Shown here: positions 1 to 39,254 of the stretch, one piece after another
Numbering within the stretch: position 1 is the first letter of the stretch
Layout: each line of letters starts with the position of its first letter
DNA from: an uncultured Planctomycetia bacterium
Lineage (GTDB): Bacteria > Omnitrophota > Gorgyraeia > JABMRG01
Reading direction: 5' to 3'
Assembly: GCA_964634945.1 (NCBI GenBank)
Contig: CAZWMG010000001.1
Coordinates: 116,825-180,824 of the forward strand
DNA length: 64,000 nt
Position numbers and translations under genes: made by a program
Notes under the pieces: generated by a model
The model's input: only the letters and a program-made list of their open reading frames with translations
The model's database searches: none
Told to the model about the DNA's origin: nothing

Positions 1-133
1 CAACATCTGTTACAAGATTTACCCTACCCTTATAGGATATTTTTTCAATCCTTCCTAAATGTTTTTTAAGAAACACACCTGCGTCTTTAGCGAGATTCTC
101 GATAAACTTTTTATATTGCATCTCTTCTTTCAT
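1..133 (-). CDS. inositol monophosphatase family protein (SuhB-like), N-terminal fragment running off the window start
   Basis: Minus-strand ATG at 133-131. Translation MKEEMQYKKFIENLAKDAGVFLKKHLGRIEKISYKGRVNLVTDV... matches the IMPase N-terminus (DLVT..D motif). Not in the ORF track because the ORF is short and truncated. Confidence 0.4.
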   Translation of the reverse strand, partial: MKEEMQYKKFIENLAKDAGVFLKKHLGRIEKISYKGRVNLVTDV

Positions 134-202
134 TACATATATCCATTTTTTATTCTTCTTATCTCTTAAAAGAAAGGTAAGCCGCCGTGCCGACTTACTT
201 TT

Positions 203-3334: not shown

Positions 3335-4432
3335 TTAGCTTTTTATCAGATCTATCCTCTCGGATGCGGGGGGATGATCATAAAAGAAATGCTTAGCGAG
3401 CATTCCAGGAGTTGGATCTGATAGATTTTGCAGAGTGAGCTTTTCTATAAGATCGGAAAATACAAAAGGCTTACCGGTTATAACGATAGCGTCTTTATCA
3501 GCCTGTGTCTCATATTTTCTGGAGATCGAGTTTAATATCGGGAGAGAACATATACTGTATAGAGTGAAGACAATCGCTATTATCGGAAATGCTTCTATGC
3601 TGTATTGCGCAGAAATAAACCTAGCTGATATAGCAAAATCCAAAATAAAATTAATTATTAGGAGATTTAGCAGGATCGATAAAAAATGCAATATATTCAG
3701 CCTCCAAAAATGCATATGCTTGTGATGGGCCAGTTCATGAGCAAGCGTAGCCTCTATCTCATCGGGAGTATAATTTTCAAGCAGTGTATCCGAAAGAAGA
3801 ATTCGCTTGCTCTTTCCAATGCCGCAAACCGCGGCATTGGCCTTGGAAGTTTTCGCGCCAAGGCCTATTGTGTAGACATCAACGATCTCAATGTCCATGC
3901 TATCGGCTAATTTAGTAAGCCTCTCCTTCAATAGCTTGTCAGTGATTATTGTAAGTTTGTAAAAAAGCGGGATAACTATCTGTGGAAATATCTTCGCGAT
4001 TATTACACTCATAAAAAAATACGCGACACCTGAATATAGCCACCAAAAAACCGGTGAGATCCTTAAAAAAAGATAAAGAGATAAGATCATGATCATAGAA
4101 AGCAGTCCGGAAAATAAAACCTTTTTAATGTAATCCATTAACCATGACGATAAAGTCTGCCTTGATAGGCCAAAATCATGCTCCATTCGAAAGGATGCGG
4201 TATAGTCAAGCGGCAAGAGAATGATCTGCAAAAAGCTACCTGCGATAGCTATATATATTGCGGCTACTATGTAAGGGTTCTGCGATACCATAAGCGCAAG
4301 AGAGATCAAGAATTCAGAACCGCCGCTAAAAAATAGACCAGTGAAAAAGAGAATGGTCAGGACCCATTCGGAAACTGCTATTTTACGTTTACCAACTGAA
4401 TATAGCTTTGTTTTATCTTCACGGCTATCCAA
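3335..4432 (-). CDS. M48 family zinc metalloprotease (HtpX/Ste24-like), integral membrane
   Basis: Multiple TM helices. HExxH motif in LAHELAHHKH. C-terminal region typical of M48. Confidence 0.6.
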   Translation of the reverse strand: MDSREDKTKLYSVGKRKIAVSEWVLTILFFTGLFFSGGSEFLISLALMVSQNPYIVAAIYIAIAGSFLQIILLPLDYTASFRMEHDFGLSRQTLSSWLMDYIKKVLFSGLLSMIMILSLYLFLRISPVFWWLYSGVAYFFMSVIIAKIFPQIVIPLFYKLTIITDKLLKERLTKLADSMDIEIVDVYTIGLGAKTSKANAAVCGIGKSKRILLSDTLLENYTPDEIEATLAHELAHHKHMHFWRLNILHFLSILLNLLIINFILDFAISARFISAQYSIEAFPIIAIVFTLYSICSLPILNSISRKYETQADKDAIVITGKPFVFSDLIEKLTLQNLSDPTPGMLAKHFFYDHPPASERIDLIKS

Positions 4433-5397: not shown

Positions 5398-5706
5398 TCA
5401 TACCTTATAGACCAAGTCATTACTTCTTACTCTCTTTTTTGCTATAAAACCTACCTCACTGCCTTTTTTTGCTTTTTCTACATCCTTGTTATCTATCTGA
5501 AGAGAACTTAACTTCTGCTTAAAATCTGTGGTGTGGCCTTGAATATGAACTGTATCACCCGCGGATAAAGGTGTTTTAAGTTTTATAACCCCTGCCCTAC
5601 ATCGGCTAAAGTAATGCGTTATGCTTCCTATTGGCTTACCTTCGGGTTTTTTCCTTTGAGCTTTCTTTACTGATTTTTGCTTCTTAAAGAAATTGAATAT
5701 CATCAT
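5398..5706 (-). CDS. small hypothetical protein, lysine-rich N-terminus plus beta-barrel-like domain
   Basis: 102 aa. Resembles standalone EF-Tu-domain-2-like small proteins (GDTVHIQGHTTDF...VGF). Weak. Confidence 0.3.
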   Translation of the reverse strand: MMIFNFFKKQKSVKKAQRKKPEGKPIGSITHYFSRCRAGVIKLKTPLSAGDTVHIQGHTTDFKQKLSSLQIDNKDVEKAKKGSEVGFIAKKRVRSNDLVYKV

Positions 5707-5836: not shown

Positions 5837-8800
5837 TTACTGCCAACATATATTTTTATAATCGCATCTTCCGCATCTTTTTACGCTATCATCATATTCT
5901 TGGAGTCTTGAGAAATCAAGATTCTTGATAGATTTCCAGCAGCCTCTTATCAGGGCCTCAAGCTCGTTAACCTTTTTATCGCTAATAGTAACCCGTTTAT
6001 TGATAAAATCACCTTTTTTTAATCCATATTTTATTACACTCAGTTTTACGGGCTCAATAAAGACAAGCAGCCCTTCAGTGATCACATAACCTCTCGCGGA
6101 ACTATCCCTATCAAATAAGAGCTTATAAGCGACCAGCTGCCTAAAATAGCCTTCACAATCACTGTCTCCGAGTTCCTGTGTTTTGGAAGTCATATTTTTA
6201 ATATGGTCATCCGGTTTTCCTGTTTTATAATCAACTACTCGTACGTATGGGGATCTTTCGTCCACCAATTCAGTCTTATCATATTTACCGGTAAAGATCA
6301 AGTCGTCATCAAGCGTGACAATTAGCTTCTTCTCAAGGCCAATCGGTTTCACGGGTGCTACTGATTCTGCCTTAAACCACCCTCTAAGTGTATCGACCTG
6401 CCTGCGACAGGAGAGTTCAATCGCCTTCTCGACACCCTGATATCTTAGTTCATCTAGGAACGATGCCTTAAAAAATTTAAAATCCGGGAATTTATCTTTG
6501 TCCATGAAGTATCTATATACATCTTCTAATGCCTTGTGAACACAGTTTCCAAAGGTAAGGCCTAGCTTTTTCTGGGAAGGCAATCGCAGTACATCAGTAT
6601 AGAGAAATTTTCTCTTGCAATTTATATAGCTATTCAAGCTTGTAGGATTCAGCGTAAGATTGGATATCATATCACTCAATACAGCCTCTGTGCCGATAAA
6701 AGGATCCTTCTTGTTTGTACAGGCAAGCGCGTCCGCAAGAACAATATCCTCCTTAACTAAAGACTTACTCGCGACACTCTCTAGCCCCACTAAGGAAAGA
6801 TATGAACTGCTTATCGTCCCTGGCTTTGGGCTGGCTGTATATAGCAGGTTTGCTTTCGCGCGGGTTGACGCCACATAAAAGAGTCTTGTTTCGTCATAAA
6901 AATTCATGATCTTGACCTTATTTTTGTCAGGCGCCTTATCTTTTGTCTTGAATATTTCTGGGGGCAATGGTATCAGGTCTGATTTTAAGCGCATAGGCCA
7001 ATTCTTATCCTGCAAACAAAACGGTATAATAACAGAATGGAACTCTAGCCCCTTCGAGCCATGTGCCGTAAAAATCCTTACTCCATCCTGGCTCATCGTA
7101 ACAAGATCTCCCTGAAGAGGTATGCCATGTTCTCTCTTCATATCCAGCTCATCCATAAGATCGGAAAGCGTTAAAGCGGGACTATTGAGATCTGAAACCT
7201 TTATCATATTAATAAATGATGTTAACGCGCGAAGATCCCTTATCTTTAAGATAGCGTCATCCTTGTATGCCTTGAGAATATACTTGTATATCCCCGCGTC
7301 TTCAACATATTGTAAAAGCGCGGCGTGAACAGGACGTGTGCTAATGGACTCCAGTAGCCTCCTTATGGCCCATGCCGCTTTTGCGATTGCGCATGGGTCC
7401 TTAAAGCTTGAGCTTTTACATATAGGTAATAACCTGATATCCTTATTTAATAGCTCCGCTTTCGTATCAAGCGAATCAAAACAACTTAGAAACTCTTGAA
7501 ATAATGTTATCTCATTTGAGCGCTTATCCTCTTTATTGCGCATTCTCTTGCGCTGGAGATGCCTGATAAATTCCAGTACATCTCTCATGGGGATCTGAAA
7601 ATAATCGCTAATGAGCACCCTATACAACAAGGCGTCCTTTTCCGATATCGCGGTAATGTTTCGGGTGTCGGAAAGAGCTAGGACATCAAGCATCTGCCTG
7701 ACCCTTTTTTCTGGCGTTATATCCTCTTTTCCATCGGTTGCATATGGTATACCCGCCTTTAAGAATGTGTCTATAACCTTTAAGATCTCTTTTCTCTTGC
7801 GTACTAGTATCGCTATATTGTTGTAAGGGTGCGCCTTATCATCATCAGAGACCTCGCTTGAGGATACAATGCGGGCCTTAATCTCCTTTACCTTATTCGC
7901 TAAAAAAATAAGCTCCTCCGCCTCTGTCGTAAGCTCGTGGAACTCTATTCTTTTATCACTATAATCTTTCTTAGGCGTAAGCTCTTTTAAAGTCATCCTC
8001 TCCGCGTCAGGAAGGTTGCCTATTATCTTATCGGATATCATTATTATGTTTTTGGTAGATCTATAATTATCTTTTAACGATATTGTCTTCAATTTTGGAA
8101 AACGTGATTCAAGAAGCTTGAAATTTCCTACGGACGCCCCTTGAAAACGATAGATAGACTGGTCATCGTCTCCTACGCAACAAAGATTTGGATCCTTGCT
8201 CCTTGCAAGCTCGAACAATAACTCTAGCTGTGCCCCATTTGTATCCTGAAACTCATCTACCATTATAAATGTGTACTTCTGACACAAGGCATCCCTAATC
8301 CCTTTCTCTTTTCTAATCGCCTCAAGGGCAAAGATTATCATGTCATCAAAATCATATCTTCCGCGATCATCAAAAAGATCCCTATTCTTGCCTGCCTTGT
8401 ACTCCTCATAAAGCTTATAGACAATCGCCAGGGCTTTGATTCTGGGCAGATGTTTTTCTTCGATATAAACCCCATCAGGCTTTATGGAAGTAGCGATTCT
8501 CTCAAATTCTTTTGGCCCTATGCCCTCTTTTTTTAGTTCACTGATCTTACTCTCTATCGCGTTGCGATAAATATATGGCGCCCTGAACGGCCTAATCGGA
8601 TCTATGCCATCTGTATTATCAAGTATATACTCAAATGCCTTGACCCTTTCTATGTCTGTTATCTGTATCTTATCCCGAACATAGTTTGCGGCATCTTCTG
8701 AATCAAGTAATATGGAATTTGAAAAACTATGGAAGGTACCTGTTTCAATATCATACCCATCAGGCCCTAATATCTTTACTAGGCGTTCTTTCATGGCCTT

Positions 8801-13061: not shown

Positions 13062-14591
13062 ATGCTTGCAAATAGTAAATCAAGGACTATTTTTGGCGTG
13101 GCTTCACGCGAGGTCGACGTGGAGATTGATATCACGTCAGGGGTTAGGTGTTTTATTATAGTTGGGCTCCCGGATACCGCATGCCGTGAGTCTGCCCAAA
13201 GAGTAATAGCGGCGCTTAAAAACTCTGGCTTTAAGCTACCAAGCCTGCGCATTACTGTAAATCTTGCTCCTGCACACCTGCGAAAAGAAGGCGCTATGCA
13301 TGACCTGGCCATAGCTGTGACCATACTTGCCGCCTTGAATATAATTGAAAAAGAACGACTTGGTAATAAAGTATTTTGCGGCGAGCTCTCGCTTGATGGC
13401 ACCTTAAGACCGGTAAAAGGGATTCTATGCGTTGCTGATGACTTAAAAAAGCATAAGAATATAGAGCTAATCATACCCTCACAAAATATATCTGAGGCAA
13501 ATGCTGCCAAAGGCCTGCATTTCGTCGCAGCCTCCTCGCTCTCTGAGGTTGTAGAGTACCTTTCTAGCGGCACAGCCCCAATTCAAAAAACAACTCATAA
13601 AAGTAAGGTGTCCCTATCAAGCATTGATTCCCATGACTATTCAGATATAAAGGGTAATTATAGCGCCAAGCGCGCGATGGAGATAGCTGTCGCTGGTGGG
13701 CACAACATTTTACTAATAGGCTCACCCGGGGCCGGAAAAACCATGTTGGCAAAACGACTACCAACAATAATGGGCAAGCTAAGTACAGAGGAATCCATAG
13801 AAACAAGTAAGATTTACAGCATTTGTGGTCTTTTGTCAGACAAGGAACTGATATCAACGCCCCCTTTTAGAGACTTACACCACTCTGTATCTGATGCCGG
13901 CATGCTTGGTGGGGGCTCACATCATATACGCCCAGGTGAGGTAAGCCTTGCCCATAATGGGGTGCTTTTTCTGGATGAACTACCTGAGTTCAAGCGGAAT
14001 GTGCTGGAGGCGCTACGGCAGCCTATTGAGCAGGGCTTGATAAGGATATCCAGAGCAAATGCCTCCTTGAGCTACCCATGCCGCTTTATGCTAGTAGCAG
14101 CCATGAACCCATGCCCGTGTGGCTTTTTGACGCATCCAAAAAAGGTCTGCTCTTGTTCGCCGGGGCAGGTTCAAAGATATCTGTCGAAAATCTCCGGGCC
14201 TCTATTAGACCGGATAGATATGCATATTGAAATTCAGCCCATTAAATACGAGCAGATGATTGAAAGGACATGCGAAACAACTTCAGCAATAATAAAGACG
14301 CGTGCCAAAAACGCCAGATGCGTGCAAAATGAACGCTACAAAAACCACAGATACAAATGCAATGGAAAGCTACCGCATAGAGACATTGAGAACTATTGTA
14401 AAGTTTCTGATGAGGCATCTGAACTACTAAGAATGGCCATGTCTGAATTATTCATAAGCGCCCGTGCCTATGATAAGATCCTTAGGGTCTCAAGAACAAT
14501 AGCGGATCTTGACAATAAACCAATAATCGGAGCTGAACAGGTCTCAGAGGCCATAAGTTACCGCTGCCTTGATACTAAGGCCTGGCTCTAA
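13062..14591 (+). CDS. comM: YifB/ComM Mg-chelatase-like AAA+ ATPase
   Basis: N-terminal Lon-like S5 domain. Walker A GSPGAGKTMLAKR, Walker B VLFLDELPEF. C-terminal ChlI-like domain. Confidence 0.85.
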   Translation: MLANSKSRTIFGVASREVDVEIDITSGVRCFIIVGLPDTACRESAQRVIAALKNSGFKLPSLRITVNLAPAHLRKEGAMHDLAIAVTILAALNIIEKERLGNKVFCGELSLDGTLRPVKGILCVADDLKKHKNIELIIPSQNISEANAAKGLHFVAASSLSEVVEYLSSGTAPIQKTTHKSKVSLSSIDSHDYSDIKGNYSAKRAMEIAVAGGHNILLIGSPGAGKTMLAKRLPTIMGKLSTEESIETSKIYSICGLLSDKELISTPPFRDLHHSVSDAGMLGGGSHHIRPGEVSLAHNGVLFLDELPEFKRNVLEALRQPIEQGLIRISRANASLSYPCRFMLVAAMNPCPCGFLTHPKKVCSCSPGQVQRYLSKISGPLLDRIDMHIEIQPIKYEQMIERTCETTSAIIKTRAKNARCVQNERYKNHRYKCNGKLPHRDIENYCKVSDEASELLRMAMSELFISARAYDKILRVSRTIADLDNKPIIGAEQVSEAISYRCLDTKAWL

Positions 14592-15398
14592 GGGACACTC
14601 TTCGCAACACATCTATTTGCAATATGTTATACACTAATTAATTTAATAATCGACCTATATTAAAGGATTTACAATGATTCGTATTCCACGCAAAGACCAA
14701 ATTCAAGACACTCTTACCTACCACATATTCAATAGAGGTAATGCCAAGCTGGATGTTTTTCATGATAATAAGGATTGTGATTATTTTATTGGGCTCATAA
14801 AGACCTATGAAGATAGATTTAATTTATATATATACAATTGGGTCTTAATGAAAAATCATTTTCATTTTTTAGCATGCATTAATAATCCAAAATTTTTATC
14901 CAAATGCTTGGGGGGACTGCAGCAAGCATATACACAGTATCATCACAAAAAATGGAATAGCGCAGGTAGGTTATGGCAAGGAAGATTTAAGAGTCAACCG
15001 ATTCAAAATGATAGATATTTCTTTGAGTGCGGAAGATATATAGAAAGGAATCCAATGCGCGCCAAGATAGTTAAGCTTCCATGGGATTATCAATATTCTA
15101 GTTGTAAATTGTACTCATTAGGAATATCGGATTCTATAACAACGACAAACCCTGGTTATAATTCCTTTTCAAACACAATAGCTATAGAATCTCGACAAAG
15201 CGAATATAGGACATGGTTAATGAGTGGGGAGAATCGGAGTTTTGTCAACATGGATAGACCTGTAGGAAATGAAGATTTTATAAAAGGCTTATTGAAAATT
15301 AATGGTCGTCTAGTTGCAAAAAAGGCAAGACGTTCATTCAAAAATTAGTAGATTACTTAGTTCATAACTATCTATGAAATAAGCAGTTAAAAAGAGTG
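14588..15398 (+). mobile_element. REPtron-like unit: RAYT/IS200-family Y1 transposase gene bracketed by 13-bp inverted repeats
   Basis: AAGGGACACTCTT at 14588-14600 and its perfect reverse complement AAGAGTGTCCCTT at 15386-15398 flank the CDS at 14674..15348. Confidence 0.55.
14674..15348 (+). CDS. REP-associated tyrosine transposase (RAYT) / IS200-like Y1 HUH transposase
   Basis: YHIFNRGN...F, HUH motif MKNHFHFL, GRLWQGRFKS, RYIERNP, catalytic-region Y in DYQYSS. Characteristic of PF01797 RAYT proteins. Confidence 0.75.
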   Translation: MIRIPRKDQIQDTLTYHIFNRGNAKLDVFHDNKDCDYFIGLIKTYEDRFNLYIYNWVLMKNHFHFLACINNPKFLSKCLGGLQQAYTQYHHKKWNSAGRLWQGRFKSQPIQNDRYFFECGRYIERNPMRAKIVKLPWDYQYSSCKLYSLGISDSITTTNPGYNSFSNTIAIESRQSEYRTWLMSGENRSFVNMDRPVGNEDFIKGLLKINGRLVAKKARRSFKN

Positions 15399-15403
15399 TC
15401 CCT

Positions 15404-16429
15404 TTATTTTGTTGCTTCAATTAGGACGCTTCTTGGCCGGAATAATATTCGGTGTGGAATAAGTAGAAACGAAAATAACTTATCAATAAGAGGGGCCCTT
15501 ATAATAGCTTTCGCTAATGTTAACTTAAAGCCCGATTTAAGGCCTCTCGATTCTTTGCGCGCTACATAATCCTTTAAAAAAGATAAATAAGTAACCTTTA
15601 TTTTGTCAAAACCGCTATTTTTAATAGCCCTTTGCCACTGCCATACCGGATAGTAGTGGTCGTTATAACCAAAATCATCAGGATGCTGTTGAGGCTTCTC
15701 AAAAACACCTACAAAGCACTCGTTCATTAAGATTGCCCTGCCACCTTTCTTAAGGACGCGGTTAAGTTCTTTAAAAGTCCTATTCAAATCTGAACTATGA
15801 TGAATAGTAGCAGCGGCAAAAATTATATCAAAAGAACCGCTTTCAAATGGGAGCCTATCCATGTCCGCATAAATTCTCTCGAAATAGAGGCCATCCCTTA
15901 AGTAAAGGTCCGCTACCTTTAAGTAGTCTGTAATATCGACAGCTACAACATCACAACCCTTTTTAGCGAATTCACGTGACGCCCAGCAAAAAGCAGCGCC
16001 TAATTCTAAGACCTTCATCTCTGGTTCAATGGACCAATTATCGATTAAGTCAAAAAAACGATGTGAGCCCTCAGCAAAATTCTGAAATGAGCCTCCCTTT
16101 TTAAAGAAATAACTCCCATCTCCCTTGGGCAATGACATAAAAAGACTGCTGAATTTCTCTATCGACTCAGGATTTACAAAAAACTCATCACCTTTCTCTG
16201 TCCTAATACGAGGCTCGTCAGAACTAGCTTTTTGCTCTTTTACTATTTCAGGTGACGGCTCAGCTAGAAAATCAGTTACCCCTTGGTCAAGTGGAAAAGA
16301 ATACTTGCATGTACTACAAAGAATGGCGCCGTCTCTATACTCATCGTATAGCCCTGTTACTGAATCTATTTTAAAGGGCCTGCCTCCACAGATCGGACAT
16401 TTCAATATCTTGATAATATCAGCTTTCAT
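15404..16429 (-). CDS. SAM-dependent methyltransferase with N-terminal Trm112-like zinc ribbon
   Basis: N-terminal CPICGG...CSTC. Class I MTase motif I VLELGAAFCW and post-I D in VVAVD. FDIIFAAATIHH. Confidence 0.55.
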   Translation of the reverse strand: MKADIIKILKCPICGGRPFKIDSVTGLYDEYRDGAILCSTCKYSFPLDQGVTDFLAEPSPEIVKEQKASSDEPRIRTEKGDEFFVNPESIEKFSSLFMSLPKGDGSYFFKKGGSFQNFAEGSHRFFDLIDNWSIEPEMKVLELGAAFCWASREFAKKGCDVVAVDITDYLKVADLYLRDGLYFERIYADMDRLPFESGSFDIIFAAATIHHSSDLNRTFKELNRVLKKGGRAILMNECFVGVFEKPQQHPDDFGYNDHYYPVWQWQRAIKNSGFDKIKVTYLSFLKDYVARKESRGLKSGFKLTLAKAIIRAPLIDKLFSFLLIPHRILFRPRSVLIEATK

Positions 16430-22663: not shown

Positions 22664-23182
22664 TCAATATACAACTTGTGAAAATATCTTATAACCTTTT
22701 AACTTATCGCGGCCATTTAAAAACGCTAATTCTATCATCAGGGCAATTTCAATTATCTTACCCTTCTGCTGTTTAACCAGTTCACACATAGCCTCTGCGG
22801 TACCACCAGTCGCTAACAGGTCATCTACAATTAGGATTGACTCATTTTCGCGTATAGCATCTTCGTGCATATAAAGAGTGTCGCTTCCGTACTCTAACTC
22901 ATATGAAGCCTCTATAGTTTTGTATGGAAGTTTGCCCTTTTTTCTGACAGGGACAAACCCAGCGCCAAGCTTATAAGCAAGTACGCTACCAAGAATAAAA
23001 CCGCGCGCATCAGCCGCTACCACCTTATCTATCGGCATATTTTTATACCTGTCTACAAAGATATCAATAACCTTTTGAAATGCTTGCTTGTCACCTAATA
23101 GGGTAGTAATATCTTTAAAGACAATACCCTTTTTCGGAAAATCCTGAACATCCCTTATGTGATCTTTTAAATTTATACTCAT
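22664..23182 (-). CDS. apt: adenine phosphoribosyltransferase
   Basis: PRPP-binding motif ILIVDDLLATGGTA. 172 aa. Typical APRT N-terminal region. Confidence 0.85.
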   Translation of the reverse strand: MSINLKDHIRDVQDFPKKGIVFKDITTLLGDKQAFQKVIDIFVDRYKNMPIDKVVAADARGFILGSVLAYKLGAGFVPVRKKGKLPYKTIEASYELEYGSDTLYMHEDAIRENESILIVDDLLATGGTAEAMCELVKQQKGKIIEIALMIELAFLNGRDKLKGYKIFSQVVY

Positions 23183-38843: not shown

Positions 38844-38981
38844 AATTTAGTCATACCTTACCGTTGTAACATAATTTATAGCATTGTTCTGTTACTCATC
38901 ATGCATATTGGGTATTGCAATAAGAATTAAACGCAATACGCGCTACGCACAACACAATACGAAATTCATTGCATAAAGCGT

Positions 38982-39254
38982 CTATCGCACGCTCTGTTTC
39001 ATTACAAGACCCGGCTTAAACGTAACAACTTTCTTAGGTGGCACTGAAACAGTCTCGCCCGTTCTAGGGTTTCTACCAGTACGCGCCTTGCGCTCTTTTA
39101 CCTTAAAAACACCGAAATTTCTAAGCTCAAGGGTCTCACCCTTTGCCAGCGATTCTATCATCGCGTCAATAGTTTTCTGGACGACCTCTTTTACTACGAT
39201 CTGTTTAATACCTGTCTCATCTGCGATTTTTATTGCTATCTCTTTTTTTGTCAT
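38982..39254 (-). CDS. hup: HU/IHF family DNA-binding protein
   Basis: 90 aa. Arm motif RNPRTGE...V..P..K. Confidence 0.8.
   Translation of the reverse strand: MTKKEIAIKIADETGIKQIVVKEVVQKTIDAMIESLAKGETLELRNFGVFKVKERKARTGRNPRTGETVSVPPKKVVTFKPGLVMKQSVR

Follow-up and report, generated by a model that had tools for sequence, protein, structure and literature searches.

A RAYT-like Y1 gene between exact inverted repeats in a Candidatus Omnitrophota genome, a probable TIRtron

In a 64-kb stretch of DNA from a Candidatus Omnitrophota genome (64,000 nucleotides of contig CAZWMG010000001.1, hereafter the window), a gene of 224 codons for a Y1/HUH tyrosine nuclease lies between two convergent genes, one of the comM/yifB type and the other encoding a methyltransferase, and is bracketed by inverted repeats. 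These had been noticed in a first-pass annotation, and the observation is confirmed: the 13-nt sequence AAGGGACACTCTT is located at 14590-14602 on the plus strand, its exact reverse complement at 15392-15404, and the gene between them is intact. RAYT-like genes flanked by inverted repeats that are not repetitive extragenic palindromes (REPs) were named TIRtrons/TIRYTs in 2013, from 26 examples (Di Nocera, De Gregorio & Rocco 2013, PMC3733652). We consider it likely that positions 14590-15404 form one 815-bp unit of this kind, consisting of a RAYT-like Y1/HUH nuclease gene (the TIRYT) and two terminal units that are most likely recognised by the encoded protein.

Results

The locus and its ends

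The features of the locus, from left to right, are the following:

13062-14591, plus strand: left flanking gene, a YifB/ComM-family Mg-chelatase-like AAA ATPase (TIGR00368, 564 bits; Pfam)
14589-14611, plus strand: left terminal unit, with AAGGGACACTCTT at 14590-14602, the 3-nt spacer CGC and AAC at 14606-14608; an exact inverted repeat, gap-free to the family consensus
14612-14673, plus strand: leader from the left end to the ATG, with no sigma-70-like promoter
14674-15348, plus strand: Y1/HUH tyrosine nuclease/transposase gene of the TIRYT type, 224 amino acids
15383-15405, minus strand: right terminal unit, with AAGGGACACTCTT from 15404 down to 15392, the spacer TTT and AAC from 15388 down to 15386
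15404-16429, minus strand: right flanking gene, a class I S-adenosylmethionine methyltransferase with an N-terminal Trm112-like zinc ribbon (Pfam Methyltransf_11/25; NCBIfam)

Each terminal unit comprises about 19-23 nt, in which a short imperfect palindrome with GAC at its core precedes a conserved (T)AAC. The units are inverted with respect to each other, the same sequence, read 5'->3', belonging to the top strand on the left and to the bottom strand on the right. The symmetry of the arms reaches inward to the conserved AAC, such that both read AAGGGACACTCTT-NNN-AAC and are identical at 16 of 19 positions. The arms are 789 nt apart, one ending 71 nt before the Y1 ATG and the other beginning 43 nt past the Y1 stop codon (15346-15348). 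The first-pass annotation was thus correct that the repeats bracket the gene, but not in the distance of 36 nt that it gave on the right, nor in placing the left arm immediately after the comM stop, because this arm includes the final AA of the comM TAA (14589-14591). Of the methyltransferase TAA (15404-15406, minus strand), the final base lies within the right arm, and the unit occupies the whole intergenic space, from stop codon to stop codon, between the convergent genes.

There are no further exact copies of AAGGGACACTCTT within the window, as had been reported at first pass. Two inexact matches were rejected, one at 22874 (one mismatch) that lies inside a phosphoribosyltransferase-like open reading frame (ORF) and is attributed to chance, and one at 15488 (two mismatches) that lies inside the methyltransferase gene. 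By our own estimate, chance alone would produce about 1e-4 exact 13-nt inverted pairs in the 100-nt flanks of a single gene, and the degenerate form GGGACACYCYT occurs twice in the window against 0.03 occurrences expected. A covariance model of the end unit (R1), whose 110 training sequences include both window arms, ranks these arms as the top two sites of the whole window (right, 17.1 bits; left, 16.9 bits), and Rfam gave no match at E <= 1 in 14000-16000. In a genome of roughly 2 Mb, the finding of zero further copies in 64 kb excludes, by our estimate, a family of about 100 or more copies, not one of tens.

The Y1 protein

The 224-aa protein passes the Pfam Y1_Tnp model (PF01797) with 40.5 bits, the Pfam core spanning residues 13-126. 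All of the RAYT-type motifs named in the first-pass annotation are present (YHIFNRGN, NHFHFL, GRLWQGRF and RYIERNP), and the catalytic tyrosine is in place as Tyr122 of RYIERNP, within a predicted helix at 114-124. Tyr122 (codon at 15037-15039) and the two HUH histidines, His62 (14857-14859) and His64 (14863-14865), are invariant in the 31-member family alignment. Among solved structures, the family profile is closest, in both sequence and fold, to the Escherichia coli RAYT TnpA_REP, with His62-Phe-His64 aligned to the HUH of TnpA_REP and Tyr122 to the tyrosine of dYIyiNPV in 4er8, and the placement of the window protein on the RAYT (TnpA_REP) branch of Y1/HUH enzymes rather than on the IS200 TnpA branch is supported. 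The matches from a single-sequence structure search (designed TIM barrels, Sm D2) proved spurious, the family profile being needed instead. The score against the NCBIfam equivalog REP_Tyr_transpos (NF047646) is 63 bits, under the curated cut-off of 80.

Past the Pfam core, the protein continues for about 90 residues that are conserved and include, in all 31 members, the invariant positions Y139, S142, S143, Y147, D153, Y178, G198 and F202. The spacing from His64 to Tyr122 is 58 aa, and the YxxSS motif at 139-143 is likewise invariant. The last ~60 aa have no counterpart in Pfam or in solved structures, and no C-terminal domain resembling HTH_23, HTH_28 or Bac_DnaA_C is detectable in the 31 members. 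Most family members end in a basic, AT-hook-like RGRP tail, with weak matches to Pfam AT_hook in 2 of 31; the tail of the window protein (residues 217-224, 15322-15345) reads ARRSFKN, without RGRP, and that of the nearest relative RRAKVE.

The window contains no second Y1 gene. A weak family-profile match at 2-202 (minus strand) resembles the N-terminus of an inositol-monophosphatase-like protein, not Y1, and was discarded.

End units in homologous loci

Homologues that are 38-76% identical to the window protein reside in unrelated gene neighbourhoods and carry an end unit of the same kind. The five nearest of these (55-76% identity) are all bracketed by GGGACACYCYT...AAC, located 62-86 nt before the ATG and 31-43 nt past the stop, and have among their neighbours genes for an IS30-like integrase, hemerythrin, TrmD, TamB, ArsP and a thioesterase. 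When the window is compared with the locus of the 76%-identical homologue (L005; relatives are designated here by such locus numbers), nucleotide homology starts at 14594, inside the left arm. Across 184 loci, GGGACACYCYT is almost restricted to the flanks of the genes of the window clade.

A further 91, more distant loci were taken from genomes and metagenomes, and in 56 of them the gene is accompanied by a GAC-anchored inverted pair with the consensus nnGTAGACRSTTTACrTAAC, to which the window arms fit without gaps. This count depends on a relaxed criterion, the strict form GAC-N9-AAC being present on both arms at only 16 of the 91 loci. A threshold on exact inverted-repeat scores is weak, shuffled AT-rich flanks reaching scores of 10-15, and the argument therefore rests on the recurring motif rather than on the length of the repeat. 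Over hundreds of relatives, the end units co-travel and co-vary with the gene. Because homologues in unrelated neighbourhoods have the same kind of end unit, assignment of the repeats to the Y1 gene, as opposed to a generic host terminator, is supported.

Two further observations concern the end units of the major sister clade. An intergenic site of the window at 38965-38987 (minus strand), GATAGACGCTTTATGCAATG, contains the exact core ATAGACGCTTTAT of the major-clade end unit, unlike the resident GGGACAC subtype; it touches the stop codon of an ORF at 38982-39254 (minus strand), scores 15.4 bits with the family model (E about 0.3) and may be an orphan solo unit from another Y1 lineage. In the major clade itself (L014, L017, L019, L113, L116, L136 and others), a CTCCTT lies upstream of the ribosome-binding site AGGAGG and pairs with it, 30-60 nt before the Y1 start; in the intervening loop the end-unit core recurs as its reverse complement, ACGTCTAT. 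This pairing looks like a translational or autoregulatory hairpin, and is absent from the window's clade.

Copies and derivatives in relatives

Near-identical units with different flanks, and with homology that ends at the repeats, are found in relatives (L133/L134/L135, 99%; L013/L147, 94%; L019/L142, 90%; L164/L174, 90%). No target-site duplication is present at the boundaries of these units or at those of the window element. Searched with the family model of the end unit, 685 kb of related loci yielded 160 matches at E <= 1, and five comM-relative control loci yielded none. Many of these matches are solo, between genes or at gene ends; many others are gene-less plus/minus doublets with the two units 110-140 nt apart. 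Some doublets measure about 140 nt and join the left ~80 nt to the right ~55 nt of the complete unit found on the same contig; those of L131 share 90-98% identity with these terminal stretches of the L131 unit. Gene-less doublets were located at the following positions:

L131: 4132-4294 and 924-1134
L136: 645-825 and 3006-3155
L155: 697-847
L181: 729-910
L011: 14386-14537

Judging from their composition, the doublets are miniature non-autonomous derivatives. The comparison of these sequences indicates that, in relatives, both whole units and two-end derivatives have moved. The first-pass suggestion that such a protein mobilises REPs but not itself accordingly fails for this family, in which near-identical whole units lie in different flanks and gene-less miniatures exist. 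With respect to the window's own GGGACAC subtype, one solo copy lies 2.4 kb from the gene in L008, a 60% relative, and the window contains no solo or miniature copy. Plasmids rarely carry a homologue (22 of 72,556 records, none reaching 35% identity), and phages almost never do.

The termini of L134 contain tandem partial duplications, with three copies of ATCCCAGACGTTGG on the left (about 700-760) and two of TTATAATTAGATACAACGTCTACATTCT on the right (1600-1650), which may be footprints of repeated cleavage and rejoining. In L171, there are about 600 extra nucleotides between the Y1 stop and the right end unit compared to the otherwise 98-99% identical L020 and L181; this is an insertion in the right end of the element.

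The comM-methyltransferase junction

The exact window protein is encoded on nine contigs, with neighbours that are all alike, and the four that were retrieved are 99.99-100% identical to the window. In related genomes the occupants of the junction vary, and the gene is absent from L091-L095 and L102:

L091-L095, ComM 93% identical: 132-nt spacer with no Y1 gene, containing GAAACAGTTTC and GGGACACTGTTTCGG repeats (L091, 3879-4010)
L096, L097 and L100, ComM 80-84%: a different Y1 gene of 160 aa, 37-40% identical to the window protein (L096, 6534-7200; L097, 4266-4919; L100, 6531-7165)
L102, ComM 71%: 10-nt spacer GTCTCTATGT (5534-5543)

Orthology between the 224-aa gene and the 160-aa junction genes was considered and rejected, given that the identity of 37-40% is no closer than that of random family members and that the genes are incongruent with ComM. 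Thus, L096 and L097 are 89% identical in Y1 and 82% in ComM, and L097 and L100 are 55% identical in Y1 and 84% in ComM. From this incongruence it follows that the junction has been occupied, emptied and re-occupied by different Y1 elements. By the same comparison, the window unit appears to be a lineage-specific arrival, or the replacement of an earlier occupant, after the split from the closest sampled relative. The window copy is now probably fixed and, within the 64 kb covered, single.

Some details of the relatives' junctions deserve separate mention. The L091 spacer resembles an L097-type site from which the gene is precisely missing between two direct copies of GGACACTGTTTC. At 3900-3965, the same spacer has a perfect 11-bp stem, CTTAAGTGTAG...CTACACTTAAG, in an insert of ~65 nt with GTTTC on both sides, which may represent either a terminator or the insertion of a small hairpin element. 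At the L100 junction (6531-6614 and 7098-7165), inverted repeats occur in two nested sets, an outer one of the major-clade type, AGACGTTTTGA, that abuts both stop codons, and an inner one with the palindromes GGGACACTGTCCCC and GGGGACAGTGTACC beside the 160-aa gene; this arrangement suggests one Y1 element inside the remains of another.

Discussion

When compared with published systems, the window element is a clean new example of the TIRtron/TIRYT class and not a new kind of element. As in TIRtrons, a RAYT-like Y1/HUH gene, longer than RAYTs, is flanked by inverted repeats that are unrelated to canonical REPs. The motif GGGGWSAS, shared by the majority, although not all, of the TIRtron repeats (PMC3733652), is matched at 7 of 8 positions by the window core AGGGACAC and exactly in relatives, as GGGGACAC in the close relatives L007 and L009 and as GGGGACGC in L026 and L045. 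Some TIRtron repeats form moderately abundant families of singles, dimers and clusters (PMC3733652), and here, too, the repeats form such families in some genomes, with none in others, as in the 64-kb window. In the classification of Quentin et al. (2018, PMC6006769), 20 of the 26 TIRYT examples fall in subclass 2.1 of TnpA_Y1, near which no REPs were found, class 2 being characterized by a distance of ~58-67 aa from HuH to Y and a downstream motif with a conserved serine. The window protein has a distance of 58 aa and the serine motif; assignment to subclass 2.1.2 fails, as no HTH/DnaA-C-like C-terminal domain is detectable. A further difference is the host phylum, Omnitrophota, which is outside those surveys. 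The family end unit of 19-23 nt, the evidence for mobility of whole units and the miniatures were not seen documented in the accessible text of PMC3733652 or PMC6006769.

The element was first described as REPtron-like, and there are clear similarities to the E. coli REPtron (TnpA_REP, PDB 4ER8), namely, the placement of the HUH motif and the tyrosine, the Y-I-x-x-N-P helix, and the inverted copies of a presumed DNA substrate that bracket the gene. However, the E. coli REPs are stable hairpins of 20-40 nt with a 5' GT[AG]G foot and hundreds of copies, whereas the window has a weak 5-bp stem and no further copy in 64 kb, and GTAG is missing from the window clade; furthermore, the window protein (224 aa) is 59 aa longer than E. 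coli TnpA_REP (165 aa). Lacking GTAG REPs and scoring below the equivalog cut-off, the element is not a canonical REPtron; with its marginal hairpin and no GT[AG]G foot, it is better described as the published TIRtron/TIRYT variant. In relatives, the gene-less pairs of inverted end units 110-140 nt apart (L131, L136, L155, L181) are reminiscent of REPINs and of miniature inverted-repeat transposable elements, but none is found in the window, and REPINs have shorter spacers and are built from canonical REPs.

If the analogy with E. coli TnpA_REP and IS608 TnpA holds, the protein would bind the end unit where this folds into a small hairpin within single-stranded DNA, such as that of a replication fork. 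Tyr122 would then cut beside the hairpin, forming a 5'-phosphotyrosine, with the metal held by His62 and His64, and the protein would subsequently rejoin the strands. Occasionally, the outcome would be movement of the whole unit and, in some hosts, spread of the end units.

Several lines of evidence weigh against the interpretation of the locus as a TIRtron with ends that are recognised by its protein. Cleavage, choice of strand and the role of the hairpin are all taken from the above analogy, and we know of no worked-out precedent for inverted ends being processed by a single-strand enzyme with one tyrosine. TIRYTs are mentioned in only two works of the open literature searched, with no experiment reported, and we found no biochemical work on any TIRYT. 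The window arms, as free single-stranded DNA, fold only marginally (-0.1 to -0.9 kcal/mol, no better than shuffles), so that free-energy folding gives no support to a stable hairpin in each window arm; support comes from pairing and covariation at the family level alone. There, a 5-bp stem with a 3-nt loop has 80% of cells paired compared to 73% in shuffled sequences and a covariation score of 0.275 compared to 0.173 (0 of 500 shuffles reach either value), in a test whose rows are not independent, since it combined both arms of each element with those of related elements; slid controls show 25-55% pairing. In the major sister clade, the arms start with GTAGAC, which is there within the 5-bp stem.

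The other adverse points concern the activity and the history of the window copy. The promoter scan yielded no plus-strand sigma-70-like site upstream of the Y1 gene. At the place where the close relatives L005, L008 and L009 have TTGACA-17-TAAAAT/TATAAT, 7-9 nt ahead of the ATG, implying a near-leaderless mRNA, the window leader has TTAATT-17-TAAAGG. The sequence of this apparently degraded promoter suggests that the window copy may be weakly expressed or inactive, and any expression of the gene may depend on read-through from comM. The five assemblies of the window species are identical and give no sign of current activity. The window unit has left no remnant of the closest relative's spacer, and its arrival was therefore no simple insertion into a site of that kind. 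Finally, part of the evidence from different flanks comes from metagenome contigs that are possibly chimeric at the repeats, although this reading is weakened by the four independent pairs and by the miniature derivatives.

A more far-reaching proposal, tentative and in our judgement more doubtful than not, is that this Y1 family is an autonomous insertion sequence (IS) family of its own kind, with a one-tyrosine single-strand HUH transposase, truly inverted hairpin+TAAC ends, no target duplication and its own miniatures, and that the junction is a landing pad at which Y1 lineages home to resident GGGACA-type hairpins. Such homing would explain why sister species have, at a single junction, three Y1 genes that differ from one another.

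Among the alternatives to a TIRtron, the one that fares best, although we regard it as unlikely, is that of a domesticated, immobile RAYT-type nuclease, that is, a vertically kept host gene for which the repeats are binding or regulatory sites and whose product acts in trans on dispersed REP-like units for the host. Domestication had also been suggested at first pass. It is compatible with the single locus in the species, alike in five assemblies, the lack of a second Y1 gene in the window, the closeness of E. coli TnpA_REP to the window protein, the rarity of homologues on plasmids and their near-absence from phages, and the observation that RAYTs are generally single-copy and vertically inherited (PMC5581495). 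However, the same junction lacks the gene in the closest relative, with a ComM that is 93% identical, and is occupied by different Y1 genes in other relatives, and the term 'domesticated' is therefore not supported. In addition, the nearest homologues reside in unrelated neighbourhoods, the family has whole-unit copies in different flanks as well as miniatures, and there is no dispersed cognate repeat in the 64 kb on which the product could act.

We consider it improbable that the unit is a classical IS200/IS605 element, in which transposition would proceed by one-strand peel-and-paste, with both hairpins on the top strand, and the inverted appearance would be a by-product of near-palindromic ends. 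Elements of this type (IS608, ISDra2) share with the window unit the Y1/HUH fold and Y1_Tnp domain, the catalytic residues, the absence of target-site duplication, the small size and the short-hairpin ends. Moreover, the arms are partly self-complementary, so that a similar hairpin is possible on either strand; the 160-aa junction Y1 genes of relatives lie between direct GGACACTGTTTC copies; and the spacer of one relative resembles a precise loss. Nevertheless, IS200/IS605 elements have no terminal inverted repeats, both end hairpins being on one strand, and a TnpA of ~130-155 aa, in contrast to the 224-aa window protein with its conserved C-terminal extension, and the profile similarity between the window family and IS200/IS605 TnpA is marginal (E = 0.08). 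Stem G-T pairs, found in 57 of the 110 arms, turn into A-C mismatches on the opposite strand. The ends are inverted, including the conserved (T)AAC on the inner side of both arms, a symmetry that is not direct, and the unit is, for this reason, not an IS200/IS605 element.

It is hardly credible that the repeats are the two halves of a host hairpin, be it a bidirectional terminator or another, that lay between the convergent genes and received the Y1 gene in its loop: although the arms abut the stop codons of both convergent genes and TTTATTTTG follows the right arm on the plus strand, the same repeat accompanies homologous genes in unrelated contexts, a scan of 14300-15700 gave no terminator-like site, and the gene-less relatives lack such a hairpin, L102 having the 10-nt GTCTCTATGT and L091 a different 132-nt spacer, neither with the AAGGGACACTCTT-loop-AAGAGTGTCCCTT arrangement.

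TIRtrons, then, are known but barely studied, and the window copy, with 815 bp and exact ends, is a very clean minimal representative. To this, the relatives add a defined end unit of 19-23 nt, comparative evidence that whole units and two-end miniatures move, and a junction at which Y1 genes are replaced. The interest of the window locus is modest, and that of the leads at the family level is somewhat higher. The question that they pose is how a one-tyrosine single-strand nuclease would handle inverted ends, and it is approachable with short oligonucleotides and one small protein. For annotation, the implication is that the Y1 gene of the window should be entered as a small mobile-element gene and not as a host function.

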